Under the pieces are notes generated by a model. That model was not told where the DNA came from. It saw only the letters and a program-made list of their open reading frames with translations, and searched no databases. DNA of 64,000 nt, taken from sequence record OR352946.1; one strand, 5' to 3'. This DNA comes from Escherichia phage AV116. This document shows positions 41,464 through 44,305 of the stretch, in pieces. A program made the position numbers and the translations under genes. Every line of letters starts with the position of its first letter. Position 1 is the first letter of the stretch.

Positions 41464-42420
41464 TTATTTGAAAGGTTTTACCATATGAAAATTTTCTTTA
41501 AACCGTTTGATGTAATCATTTTTGCCGAGCTTATGATACATAGCCACTACTTCATAATAGTTCTCGTATGCGTACTCACGGAACCAACCGGAGGTGATGC
41601 TTGTGCAGACTTTTTCTAATGCCATCATGAAACTGGCTTCAGGGTTAATTTTAAAGTCATTAGGAATCTGAGAACGTTCTAACGCTAGTACACATGATTC
41701 TTCGTATACGCCGGCCAATTTGACCATTTCCGGTAATGATTCGAACTTCTCGCGTGAGGTCATGACTTCAGAACCATCTTTCATATAAAATGTATACGCT
41801 GGACGGTCTGTTAGTGCAATGGCTTCATGAATAGTATCATGGTCATATGTATAGATGTCATCTTTAAAGAACGCACTTTTAGAAGTGTCAAGAACTGGGT
41901 GAGCATAATTCAAGGTTTCTTTCTGGCGTTTCAGCATAATTTCAGTAAGTTCATCGTTCAGTGTAACACCTTTACCACGAAGATACTGAATATGGTTCAT
42001 AGTCTTTAAAAAGAATGGATTATTTTTCTTGAAACGATGAGACATCTTAATTGCAAGACATATCTCAGGAGTTGCCCAGTAAAACCCGTTCAAACGGTCT
42101 TTAGTCAAATTTTTCTTGGCGTATTTTAAAAGGTCATAAGAAGACGTGAAATCTTCAGGAGTGAGTTCACCGACTAATTCACGGACATTAGTGATTGCCG
42201 GAACAATATATGCTTCAAAATGAGTTTCGCGTCCATTATGGAAGCATTTGAAAACTTGGACATCAGGGTTATCTTGGTGAACATATACACCCATCATTTG
42301 ATTTTTGAATGCGTTCCAAGAACCTTGGTCCGCAATAAAGTCCCAATCACTATTTTTAATAGCGCTAGAATCAATAAGACCGTGATAGTGAAGTGCACGA
42401 GAACCAATAACTAACATCAT
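41464..42420 (-). CDS. hypothetical protein
   Basis: 318-aa ORF. Confidence 0.55.
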   Translation of the reverse strand: MMLVIGSRALHYHGLIDSSAIKNSDWDFIADQGSWNAFKNQMMGVYVHQDNPDVQVFKCFHNGRETHFEAYIVPAITNVRELVGELTPEDFTSSYDLLKYAKKNLTKDRLNGFYWATPEICLAIKMSHRFKKNNPFFLKTMNHIQYLRGKGVTLNDELTEIMLKRQKETLNYAHPVLDTSKSAFFKDDIYTYDHDTIHEAIALTDRPAYTFYMKDGSEVMTSREKFESLPEMVKLAGVYEESCVLALERSQIPNDFKINPEASFMMALEKVCTSITSGWFREYAYENYYEVVAMYHKLGKNDYIKRFKENFHMVKPFK

Positions 42421-42448
42421 AATATTTTCCTCGGATTAATTCATTAAC

Positions 42449-42700
42449 TTAAATTTCACGACATGCGATATTATATTCATCCCAGAGGTCATCATGTGAA
42501 GCTTCTACCAATGGAACGATTGTACCGTTTATGTCTTCATTATAAGGGCAAATTGTACAGTGCGCATCTTCGAATCGGATGCCTTTGTGTTCAGATTTTT
42601 TATAACGCATATCGAATATCTTTGCAAACTTTTCACGAGTAATAGTTTTAGCAACCACTTTGGTTCCAATACTTTCGTAATAAATCATTGTGGACTCCAT
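42449..42700 (-). CDS. hypothetical protein
   Basis: 83-aa ORF with four Cys. Confidence 0.45.
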   Translation of the reverse strand: MESTMIYYESIGTKVVAKTITREKFAKIFDMRYKKSEHKGIRFEDAHCTICPYNEDINGTIVPLVEASHDDLWDEYNIACREI

Positions 42701-42720
42701 TTAATTTGATAGGACTACTA

Positions 42721-42749
42721 TAACATAGCCCTATCTTGTTGTAAACTGT
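42721..42749 (-). promoter_or_regulatory. T4 early-type promoter (TTTACA-N17-TATAGT) with flanking inverted repeat
   Basis: Read from sequence upstream of the ORF at 42700. Confidence 0.5.
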
Positions 42750-42750
42750 T

Positions 42751-42948
42751 TTAGCAAGAATAACTAGATGATACCCAGCCTTGAACAGTGATACTATTGT
42801 GGGATAATGAGATCGCGTCCTGGAGATTCAGACCTGCGTTATCTTCAATCCATAATGTAACTTCTTCACGTTCTTCTGTTGCAATTTGGAACAGGTTTTC
42901 CAGGGCAGCTACTGCCGTACGTACAGCACAATCTAATTCACGAGACAT
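42751..42948 (-). CDS. small protein, GWVSSSxxC C-terminal family (paralog 3)
   Basis: 65 aa; ends ...QGWVSSSYSC. Confidence 0.5.
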   Translation of the reverse strand: MSRELDCAVRTAVAALENLFQIATEEREEVTLWIEDNAGLNLQDAISLSHNSITVQGWVSSSYSC

Positions 42949-42957
42949 ATTGTTTCC

Positions 42958-43230
42958 TTAGCAAGTGTGAGAAGATGCGACCCAACCACCAGTTTCGAGG
43001 CTCAGGTTGTAGTCGTATTGGTAAACGTCGGCCCATTCAGCATAGCCGTTTTTTGTACAACGTTCAAGATCAGCTTTAAGATGTCCGGGTGAATGATAGG
43101 TTCCGCCCATACCATAAGCCGGATACAAATTAAACGTGGTGTTTTGTTTATCAGCAATTTCTTTGGCAGCCTCAATAGCTGCATAGATTTTTGCTACAGC
43201 TTCAGCCAGTTCGGTTTGTTCTTTAGACAT
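42958..43230 (-). CDS. small protein, GWVSSSxxC C-terminal family (paralog 2)
   Basis: 90 aa; ends ...GGWVASSHTC. Confidence 0.5.
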   Translation of the reverse strand: MSKEQTELAEAVAKIYAAIEAAKEIADKQNTTFNLYPAYGMGGTYHSPGHLKADLERCTKNGYAEWADVYQYDYNLSLETGGWVASSHTC

Positions 43231-43239
43231 AATGATTCC

Positions 43240-43545
43240 TTAGCACAACGCAGAAGACGAAACCCAAGCACCTTCAGTAATAACGTAACCATTACCTTCA
43301 CGCTTAACATCGCCACCATTATTTTCAATTTCATTTTTCATCCACTGGGATACGATTTCACCCTTAGGATAATAAGTACGACCGCTACCATAATCACCTA
43401 CAGAAAATGATACGGCATATTGGTCTGCGATCTTTGTTGCTTCTTCTTCGATACGTTCAGCTTGATTCAGAAGTTTATAAATTGCATCTGAAGCGGATTT
43501 GGCATCATTAAACTCTGGTACTTTAATTTCAATAATCTTACTCAT
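43240..43545 (-). CDS. small protein, GWVSSSxxC C-terminal family (paralog 1)
   Basis: 101 aa; ends ...GAWVSSSALC. Confidence 0.5.
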   Translation of the reverse strand: MSKIIEIKVPEFNDAKSASDAIYKLLNQAERIEEEATKIADQYAVSFSVGDYGSGRTYYPKGEIVSQWMKNEIENNGGDVKREGNGYVITEGAWVSSSALC

Positions 43546-43901
43546 TTTCTACATTCCTTAATAAAGTTTTCGATTGTTTCATTTTCACGTTTAGCTAGAA
43601 GTTCATTATAACTAATCATTTGAGAAGCGTAAATCTTTTTATTTTTCTTGTTATGGTTTATAAAATCGTAGTAAAAATAGACTACAGTACAAAATGATGC
43701 GATGGATGCAAAGGCTTGGGTATACCGTAAGTCCTGCCATTGGTCTGTGAATCCACCAGTGTTCCCTATAAATCCTAACACAACGCCGTCAATAAGAAAT
43801 CCAACTAATCCAAAGGCAAATCCCATGCCAATACTCATAATAAAAATTAGAATGTTCTCACCAAGAGAAGGCCATATGGTTAAGAGTTGAGGCTTTTGCA
43901 T
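43542..43901 (-). CDS. membrane protein, FIxECR C-terminal family
   Basis: 119 aa; TM helices; C-terminus ...IENFIKECRK. Confidence 0.5.
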   Translation of the reverse strand: MQKPQLLTIWPSLGENILIFIMSIGMGFAFGLVGFLIDGVVLGFIGNTGGFTDQWQDLRYTQAFASIASFCTVVYFYYDFINHNKKNKKIYASQMISYNELLAKRENETIENFIKECRK

Positions 43902-44305
43902 CTTATTTCCTTAACGAATTCCATAGCTTCTTCATATTCATACTTTTTAACAGCTTCATCATACTGAGCTTGGGCTTTTGCGCACTGAACTTTCCATTCT
44001 CTTAATCGGGCTCTGTGATGACGGCCTTGGTGCCAATATCCTACCCAATTAATAGGCATTAATAAAAACGGTACAATAAGTGGTGCGACGAACATTAATG
44101 AAAATGCTGCATCAGACGATATAACTTCACTAGAATCTAAAACAGCTCCTATAATCATAAAGATTAAAAATGCTAAAGCTAAAATAGGGCCAAATAATAC
44201 TTCATTTGGGATTAATTTACGCTTGTATTCATACGCCCAGGGCTTACTTGGCATGTATAGGGTTGGCTTTGACATATTCTCTACATTCCATAATAAATTG
44301 CTCAA
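43880..44305 (-). CDS. membrane protein (related C-terminal motif EFVKEIRC)
   Basis: 141 aa; two TM helices. Confidence 0.5.
   Translation of the reverse strand: MSNLLWNVENMSKPTLYMPSKPWAYEYKRKLIPNEVLFGPILALAFLIFMIIGAVLDSSEVISSDAAFSLMFVAPLIVPFLLMPINWVGYWHQGRHHRARLREWKVQCAKAQAQYDEAVKKYEYEEAMEFVKEIRCKSLNS

Follow-up and report, generated by a model that had tools for sequence, protein, structure and literature searches.

The window analysed here is a 64,000-nucleotide stretch of Escherichia phage AV116 (sequence record OR352946.1). Three consecutive small genes on its minus strand, between positions 42751 and 43545, encode proteins of 101, 90 and 65 amino acids (aa) that share a C-terminal tail in which a tryptophan is followed by serines and a final cysteine. 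Across phage genomes, genes for proteins with this tail lie directly upstream of one enzyme family, represented in the window by a 318-aa protein with the domains DUF7277 and DUF7275. We read the triplet as the small-protein half of a two-part phage module, and the tail as a portable tag that is recognized, and most probably covalently modified, by the enzyme; we put this reading a little above an even chance. The tail, the family and the module are undescribed in the literature that we searched, although the logic resembles known arrangements of an enzyme and its tagged substrates. The components in the window are as follows (E, expect value).

43240..43545, minus strand: tagged small protein 1, 101 aa, RB69ORF139c-type, PHROG 899 (E 1.8e-22), ending in GAWVSSSALC
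43243..43272, minus strand: C-terminal tag of protein 1 (G-A-W-V-S-S-S-A-L-C), from sequence and family-wide conservation
42958..43230, minus strand: tagged small protein 2, 90 aa, PHROG 899 (E 5e-19), ending in GGWVASSHTC
42961..42990, minus strand: C-terminal tag of protein 2 (G-G-W-V-A-S-S-H-T-C), from sequence and family-wide conservation
42751..42948, minus strand: tagged small protein 3, 65 aa, RB69ORF136c-type, PHROG 4882 (E 8e-37), ending in QGWVSSSYSC
42754..42783, minus strand: C-terminal tag of protein 3 (Q-G-W-V-S-S-S-Y-S-C), from sequence and family-wide conservation
41464..42420, minus strand: partner enzyme, 318 aa, with DUF7277 at residues 2-101 (Pfam E 8.6e-28) and DUF7275 at residues 120-305 (E 1.2e-77)

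Many genomes of Mosigvirus, the RB69-like T-even phages of Escherichia and Shigella (vB_EcoM_G53, APCEc01 and JK42 among them), match region 42400-44000 at 98-99% identity. In annotated relatives the counterparts of the triplet are RB69ORF136c to 139c, each labelled 'hypothetical protein'; e.2 and RB69ORF133c-135c flank them on one side, the membrane-protein genes e.3, e.4 and e.5 lie on the other, and a tRNA cluster is found a few kb away. An earlier reading of the window, made from the letters alone (the sequence-only reading), had described three adjacent small open reading frames (ORFs) with a shared, Cys-final tail, and this is exactly what is present. The last codon encodes Cys in all three, and they are the only ORFs with the tail among the 238 of at least 40 aa in the window. 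The chance expectation per window is approximately 0.014 ORFs for a loose form of the motif, and approximately 5e-6 for W-V-[SA]-S-S-x-x-C.

Both internal junctions of the triplet read TGC-TAA-GGA(A)-N6-ATG, the stop codon being part of a Shine-Dalgarno-like TAAGGA placed nine bases 5' of the next ATG, and the start of the 101-aa ORF overlaps the stop of the upstream e.3-like gene in an ATGA. Translational coupling of the three ORFs is plausible from these junctions. The same junctions bear on the simplest null explanation, namely that the shared C-terminus is a product of chance, or a DNA-level artefact of a repeated junction in ORFs that are not translated. The string TGCTAAGGAA is indeed common to two junctions; however, in the third gene the codons differ and the common junction is missing, the chance expectation is the 0.014 ORFs per window given above, and the motif recurs in 588 divergent clusters of proteins (see below). 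In addition, synonymous changes far outnumber non-synonymous ones. Against one Mosigvirus relative (L025; 92-98% DNA identity) the synonymous and non-synonymous differences number 6 and 1 for the 101-aa gene, 14 and 4 for the 90-aa gene, and 14 and 1 for the 65-aa gene, such that non-synonymous change per site is at most 4-8% of synonymous change. Chance, conservation and synonymous-change results together refute the artefact, to which we attach next to no credence. Judged by these substitution patterns, the three ORFs are real coding genes, translated as the sequence-only reading had supposed, and under strong purifying selection.

The same data bear on two further claims. The tails had been said to be encoded by different codons: this is true of the third gene, which differs at the Gly, the Val and two of the Ser codons, but the first two share their G, W, S, S and C codons and differ at Val. 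The proteins had also been likened to a diversifying family; over short evolutionary range no support for diversifying selection was obtained, the ratio of non-synonymous to synonymous change being low and the 101-aa protein being at least 99% identical across 115 phage records.

That the three genes are tandem paralogs is borne out by comparisons that are weak but significant (pairwise BLASTP E of 3e-4, 3e-4 and 7e-3). Identity among the N-terminal halves is 25-34%. When each protein was scored against a family profile from which it had been left out, the 101-aa protein was recovered at E 7.7e-18 whole and at 5e-14 without its last nine residues, and the 90-aa protein at 4e-17 and 6e-13, respectively. 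The 65-aa protein is a marginal member (7e-5 with the tail, 4e-3 without): it retains the N-terminal helix and the tail, lacks the YGxG hairpin described below, and otherwise has little in common with the family. Some members of its UniRef cluster carry the name 'Ig-like domain-containing protein', which neither Pfam domains nor fold evidence back here.

Word-based searches with the small proteins recovered close relatives only. An exhaustive profile search of 1.84 billion representatives returned 588 clusters (50% identity) at E<=1e-3, so defining, at the level of sequence, a family of small, acidic proteins of phages that numbers at least 588 clusters. Of the best 150 matches, nearly all are 65-170 aa long, and profile and protein end together in the alignment. 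Among 149 family sequences, W at position -7, S at -4 and S/T at -3 are each present in 148; Cys is the final residue in 140, and position -5 is occupied by Ser, Ala or Pro. The motif is thus retained in homologues from related and distant phages, and its conservation is at the level of protein, as had been proposed. Ahead of the tail, the conserved body comprises an amphipathic helix (A..IADE.G..F.F) followed by a YGMGGTYYP hairpin, and body and tail are joined by a variable linker (6-55 residues) in which Asp, Glu, Gly, Ser and Tyr are abundant. Helix and YGxGxTY hairpin are both present in the 101- and 90-aa proteins. The divergence of N-terminal halves noted in the sequence-only reading therefore describes the triplet, but not the family at large, in which helix and hairpin are conserved and it is the acidic linker that varies. 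The median isoelectric point (pI) of the family is 4.5 and the median net charge -8.

An AlphaFold2 model of the 90-aa protein (pLDDT, the predicted local distance difference test, of 89) has a helix spanning residues 3-29 and a hairpin spanning 32-46; two inserted helices come next, and then a last strand (81-85) that holds the Trp and leads into the tail. Because the five tail residues follow the last strand and form the block of lowest confidence in the model, the tail is probably exposed. Searches of Pfam, NCBIfam and PADLOC with the small proteins gave no match, and PHROGs 899 and 4882 are assigned unknown function only; a profile search of PDB sequences returned only designed helical proteins (E>0.01), and Foldseek comparison of the model to BFVD returned only uncharacterised family members. 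The searched literature held nothing on the motif strings, the RB69ORF names, the PHROG numbers or DUF7275/DUF7277. Four giant cadherin-like repeat proteins (P0058, P0060, P0107 and P0116) were rejected as family members, since many short 'V.VDDG.GNTY' repeat matches to the YGxGxTY region sum to a false positive; such proteins would contaminate automatic builds of the family.

The partner of the small proteins was first seen in a distant relative, a 371-kb phage contig on which two family members are followed by a DUF7275 gene. We assembled 48 loci from IMG/VR, metagenome contigs and isolates (43 recovered from IMG/VR via the small protein, using a 16-sequence alignment, plus five others). Each locus carries a tandem array of one to six tailed family members, and in 46 of the 48 the same strand encodes, 0-1.6 kb further downstream, a homologue of the 318-aa protein, with identity to the window protein falling as low as 33%. 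In the two exceptions the contig ends before the expected position of the enzyme, meaning that all 46 evaluable loci are linked. The gap between tailed gene and enzyme gene is often just 4-60 nt. A scan of 185,579 species genomes with an enzyme alignment gave seven hits, all on contigs of metagenome-assembled genomes (MAGs) and all with tailed ORFs directly upstream, which brings the linkage to 53 of 53 evaluable loci. From this distribution the module appears to be essentially phage-specific. The same gene order is found in the isolates MX01, PSD9, RZH, vB_EcoM_118_SA_NWU, fHe-Yen9-01 (gp145-gp142) and phiR1-RT (g128-g125). The module is absent from T4, T2 and T6, and classical T4 genetics therefore offers no lead. 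Across the 48 loci the other window neighbours (an 83-aa ORF, e.3, e.4, e.5 and e.6) showed no co-conservation beyond close relatives. The sequence-only reading saw the tail and missed this neighbour; the tail marks proteins that are encoded, in every evaluable locus, upstream of the DUF7277+DUF7275 gene.

A census of 29 dereplicated loci considered all same-strand ORFs up to 3 kb upstream of the enzyme gene and defined the tail as W-x-x-S-S-(0-2 residues)-C. The tail was found on 61 of 310 such ORFs and on 3 of the 2009 that lie in other parts of the loci (Fisher p 6e-52), and these three sit just past the 3-kb limit. Nineteen of the 61 tailed ORFs are undetected by the family profile; they range from 41 to 158 aa, have divergent or different bodies, and end, for example, in ...DWNSSSYNC, ...AWHSSMC or ...IWHPSSC. 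In divergent members the spacing from Ser to Cys varies from 0 to 2 residues (...SSC, ...SSRC, ...SSSYNC). Given that the tail occurs on bodies unseen by the family profile, it behaves, as far as sequence can tell, as a modular tag, the only universal features being the tail and the adjoining enzyme. Such a pattern is that expected of a recognition tag and its reader.

In one subfamily the motif occurs twice, once internally (DWLSSSCYGE, for example) and once at the C-terminus (IWESSSC), with the Cys directly after the serines. This may reflect fusion of, or read-through between, two mini-units, or repetition of a short linear motif. The members are listed by locus and position.

L055:5690-5911: double-motif member, phiR1-RT g128
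L012:10221-10502: double-motif member
L043:10207-10422: double-motif member
L062:7347-7631: double-motif member

Linkage and census also bear on an alternative in which the small proteins are autonomous acidic binders or inhibitors (anti-defence factors or nucleic-acid mimics) and the enzyme merely occupies the same early block. The tail would then be intrinsic to these proteins: it would form a capping strand, and its terminal Cys would serve to dimerise, to bind metal or to insert into a host target. The small size and acidity of the family (with the pI and charge given above) fit this view, as does its location in an accessory region of early type, between e.2 and e.3; differing linkers among tandem paralogs would suit several targets, and in Mosigvirus a promoter-like site and a hairpin part the triplet from the enzyme gene. 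Arn, the Ocr-like DNA mimics and the Acb2/Tad nucleotide sponges, inhibitors or mimics of T-even phages, are likewise small, negatively charged, fast-evolving Straboviridae families of early accessory regions; however, the searches run here found no sequence or fold similarity to them, and none of these families is known to have a conserved tail with Cys at its end, or an enzyme gene that always adjoins it. The view struggles with a single enzyme family linked in 53 of 53 loci while other neighbours change, and with a tail that appears on ORFs unrecognised by the profile, yet only beside the enzyme. Diversifying selection is not seen, and three orthologues are non-toxic when expressed alone. 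We consider autonomous binding unlikely, at roughly one chance in a handful.

The orthologues in question are g126, g127 and g128 of Yersinia phage phiR1-RT, which are tailed proteins of another phage and not the genes of the window. In a published screen in E. coli their relative colony-forming units (CFU) were 0.94, 0.69 and 1.08, compared to a toxicity cut-off of 0.4 (PMC6893735, supplement). These values argue against a toxic role in host takeover, and the interpretation put forward in the sequence-only reading, a diversifying family for anti-defence or host takeover, is only partly supported. The same screen first excluded proteins detected in virions (PMC6893735, section 3.1), and because such proteins had been removed, g126, g127 and g128 are probably not found in phage particles.

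What the enzyme does must be read from its two domains, both of which were detected in 29 of 29 diverse homologues. In DUF7277, G6-S7 ends the first strand and D25-x-D27 comes 15-19 residues on; both are invariant in 25 aligned sequences, as is an E/D on the 'hEhEh' strand (25/25). The signature hG[GS], [DE]h[DE]h and a third acidic residue on a later strand is accordingly present, and DUF7277 bears the three catalytic hallmarks of polymerase-beta-type nucleotidyltransferases; it is probably nucleotidyltransferase-like. In the classical members of that group the G-to-D spacing is 9-13 residues, which the spacing here exceeds. One GenBank record labels a homologue 'putative nucleotidyltransferase', and the nucleotidyltransferase family DUF6036 of Pfam gives a weak match (E 0.07-0.25). 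DUF7275 is a helical domain rich in His, Asp and Glu, in which K125, H128, K139, T140, R165, H194, D195 and H198 are invariant, as are E240, E241, E248, R249, K270 and R281. The SH, HD..H, EE and ER elements are kept in homologues from Streptomyces, Gordonia, Vibrio, Ruegeria and Limnohabitans phages; since they persist over so great a distance, their retention argues for a part in catalysis over a structural one.

A nucleotidyltransferase beside a small partner brings to mind several known pairs. In MntA-HepT, GlnD-PII and CitX-CitD, the enzyme puts a nucleotide or a nucleotide-derived group on a Tyr or Ser of its partner. In these systems, too, a polymerase-beta-type enzyme with GS/DxD motifs (in CitX, the holo-acyl carrier protein (ACP) synthase) is paired with a small protein, and CitD is likewise small and acidic. 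The present module differs in the number of partners, one to six for each enzyme, all marked by a strictly C-terminal W-x-S-S-x-x-C tail; in partners with no HEPN, PII or ACP fold or motif; in DUF7275, which has no counterpart in those systems; and in being confined to phages, with a modification that is proposed.

By analogy with these pairs, the mechanism that we favour is one of nucleotidylylation. An array of one to six small, acidic, soluble proteins would be made, typical members being built of an amphipathic helix, a YGxGxTY hairpin, an acidic linker and a last strand G-W-x, and all ending in an exposed S-S-(0-2 residues)-Cys-COOH. The DUF7277+DUF7275 enzyme would recognise them through the W...SS...C-COOH tail and modify that tail covalently, the best guess being that a Ser or the Cys of the tail is nucleotidylylated. 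Each tagged protein would then owe a separate target or role, early in infection, to the body and linker in which it differs from its paralogs. The nucleotidyltransferase fold, the physical interaction, the covalent modification and the biological purpose are all things that we infer. The more specific proposition, of a post-translational system of large lytic phages in which the enzyme covalently modifies the Ser-Ser...Cys tail (by nucleotidylylation, or by activation of Ser and thioether closure) and so yields early-acting effectors or carriers, is tentative, and we place it well below an even chance; if it held, the tail would be a novel type of portable tag addressed by an enzyme.

Short C-terminal signatures on otherwise differing proteins, served by one specific partner, are likewise the basis of LPXTG/sortase, PEP-CTERM/exosortase and GlyGly-CTERM/rhombosortase. 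In contrast to these, the tagged proteins here are cytoplasmic and acidic, with no transmembrane segment and with a free terminal Cys, and the partner belongs to no protease or transpeptidase family. Ubiquitin-like and sulfur-carrier proteins (ThiS, MoaD) were considered and set aside, as the small proteins show neither a beta-grasp fold nor a C-terminal Gly-Gly.

Several observations weigh against a tag modified by the enzyme. The nucleotidyltransferase assignment is drawn from sequence motifs alone: no Pfam or NCBIfam nucleotidyltransferase model is significant for the enzyme, profile searches of the PDB, run for the entire enzyme and again for the N-terminal domain, gave no sequence match even at E<=10, and a single-sequence AlphaFold model (pLDDT 36) is unusable. 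The loci were gathered via the small protein or the full-length enzyme, so the linkage is exact for that clade only; no tagged gene lies within 4 kb of the distant DUF7275 homologues, and linkage may stem from shared regulation or a shared pathway rather than from a relation of enzyme to substrate. The triplet and the enzyme gene of Mosigvirus are kept apart by a promoter-like site, a hairpin and an additional 83-aa gene. Finally, Cys272 of the enzyme, a conserved residue, is absent in at least one locus, L039, despite the four tagged genes there. A disulfide or Cys-Cys mechanism via Cys272, to which a mirror-like C-T-S-I-T-S-G-W motif had pointed, is unlikely on this account and was dropped.

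The tight adjacency of the two genes, with a gap often of 4-60 nt, would also suit small proteins that are cognate inhibitors or activators of the enzyme, as in toxin-antitoxin pairs. On this view it is the tail that would plug or tune the active site, and the real substrate of the enzyme would be elsewhere, such as host tRNA, RNA or a nucleotide. Nucleotidyltransferases are paired with a small adjacent partner in the MNT-HEPN and AbiE systems, which speaks for such an arrangement, and DUF7275 genes often lie near tRNA or RNA-repair genes. As many as six different tagged proteins per enzyme are, however, hard to reconcile with a simple inhibitor, and a strictly lytic phage has no obvious need of an addiction module. 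Moreover, the small proteins have neither an antitoxin-like DNA-binding domain nor the HEPN Rx4-6H motif, and a Pfam search for HEPN among 144 family members gave no hit. We regard regulation of this kind as distinctly unlikely.

Several precursor-like genes ahead of one enzyme gene recall a different chemistry, that of ribosomally synthesized and post-translationally modified peptides (RiPPs). Applied to the module, the Ser...Cys of the tail would be converted by activation of Ser and elimination, with closure of a thioether ring (of the lanthionine or aminovinyl-cysteine (AviCys) type), or a small molecule derived from Cys would be released. The prochlorosins with ProcM and the epidermin-type lanthipeptides likewise combine tandem precursor-like genes with one enzyme. 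In epidermin-type peptides a Ser/Cys pair forms the C-terminal AviCys ring, and the S(-3)-x-x-C-COOH spacing of the main family, where 140 of 149 sequences have Cys as their last residue and Ser is mostly three residues before it, equals that of this pair. Nevertheless, the spacing is not fixed, being 0-2 residues in divergent members. The small proteins are folded domains of 65-170 aa (pLDDT 89) whose conserved bodies are under purifying selection, unlike disposable leaders, and the conserved part is the tail, not a leader. The dehydratase and cyclase (LanB/C/M/KC/L) and HFCD decarboxylase families of those systems had no Pfam match among the window neighbours or the called genes of related loci, and neither radical-SAM nor peptidase genes show co-conservation there. 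RiPP-like or scaffold chemistry is in our judgement improbable.

Portable tag or not, the module is widespread. It is present in hundreds of sequenced phages of Escherichia, Klebsiella, Enterobacter, Yersinia, Aeromonas, Acinetobacter and Pseudomonas, including therapeutic candidates and phages of the BASEL collection, in which its components are annotated 'hypothetical'. Were the tail modified, tag and enzyme would constitute a new pair for phage biochemistry and would provide a handle on early accessory genes (for anti-defence, RNA/tRNA metabolism or host takeover). Were it a binding tip only, it would still define the interaction motif of a very large orphan family.

The enzyme superfamily extends beyond the tail. 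Distant, shorter DUF7275 homologues adjoin a second small family (PHROG 18295/8206/13591), present as one to four copies in tandem, with the motifs GGE.QGS.YY ... GWYASY.G ... EV.P. These homologues are carried by Streptomyces phage BillNye, Gordonia phage OneUp, Vibrio phage KVP40, DSS3_VP1 and Limnohabitans phage DC31. The loci, by position, are as follows.

L049:4899-7215: distant DUF7275 locus
L050:3220-4058: distant DUF7275 locus
L051:3360-3656: distant DUF7275 locus
L052:5217-5612: distant DUF7275 locus
L053:4725-5072: distant DUF7275 locus

Gly-rich and GW motifs come in a similar order in the two small families; homology between them is unsupported (hhalign probability 0.6%). Because untailed distant homologues adjoin arrays of different small proteins, the DUF7275 superfamily seems, from gene order, to operate generally alongside small-protein arrays.

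The company kept by these genes deserves mention. On the 371-kb jumbo-phage contig (L003; 105-5478 and 10647-15402) the module sits amid a Gad2-like gene, a T4-type RNA ligase 1, a polynucleotide kinase-phosphatase, two metallophosphoesterases and a DNA ligase. Genes for RNA ligase, kinase or tRNA are also found near the DUF7275 genes of DSS3_VP1, BillNye, OneUp and DC31. From its neighbours, a link between the module and RNA or tRNA repair is possible.

The remaining elements of the region are the signals and genes that surround the module in the window.

43605..43633, minus strand: match to a sigma-70/T4 early- or middle-like promoter (10/12 consensus positions), inside the e.3-like gene
42708..42745, minus strand: promoter-like site TTTACA-17-TATAGT (T4-early-like) with an overlapping hairpin of 10-bp stem, just after the third gene
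42449..42700, minus strand: 83-aa ORF, PHROG 3723, between triplet and enzyme and outside the conserved core of the module

The equivalent of the first site is annotated as T4 middle-like in phage SA79RD, where the hairpin after the third gene is an annotated terminator; no T-run follows this hairpin. From the second site the 83-aa ORF and the enzyme gene may be transcribed anew, apart from the triplet. As consensus matches only, these promoter-like sites are consistent with early or middle expression of the triplet. On the far side of the e.3-like gene, the e.4-like membrane protein (43880-44305, minus strand) is called a 'sulfurtransferase' in the GenBank records of JK42, JK36, JK45 and vB_Eco_F27; Pfam, NCBIfam and PADLOC searches gave that name no support, and it is probably an annotation artefact. 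The 83-aa ORF occurs in 7 of the 48 loci, all of them Mosigvirus or Karamvirus-like, and is without the tail; it contains a Cys/His-containing stretch, HCTICPY...H.

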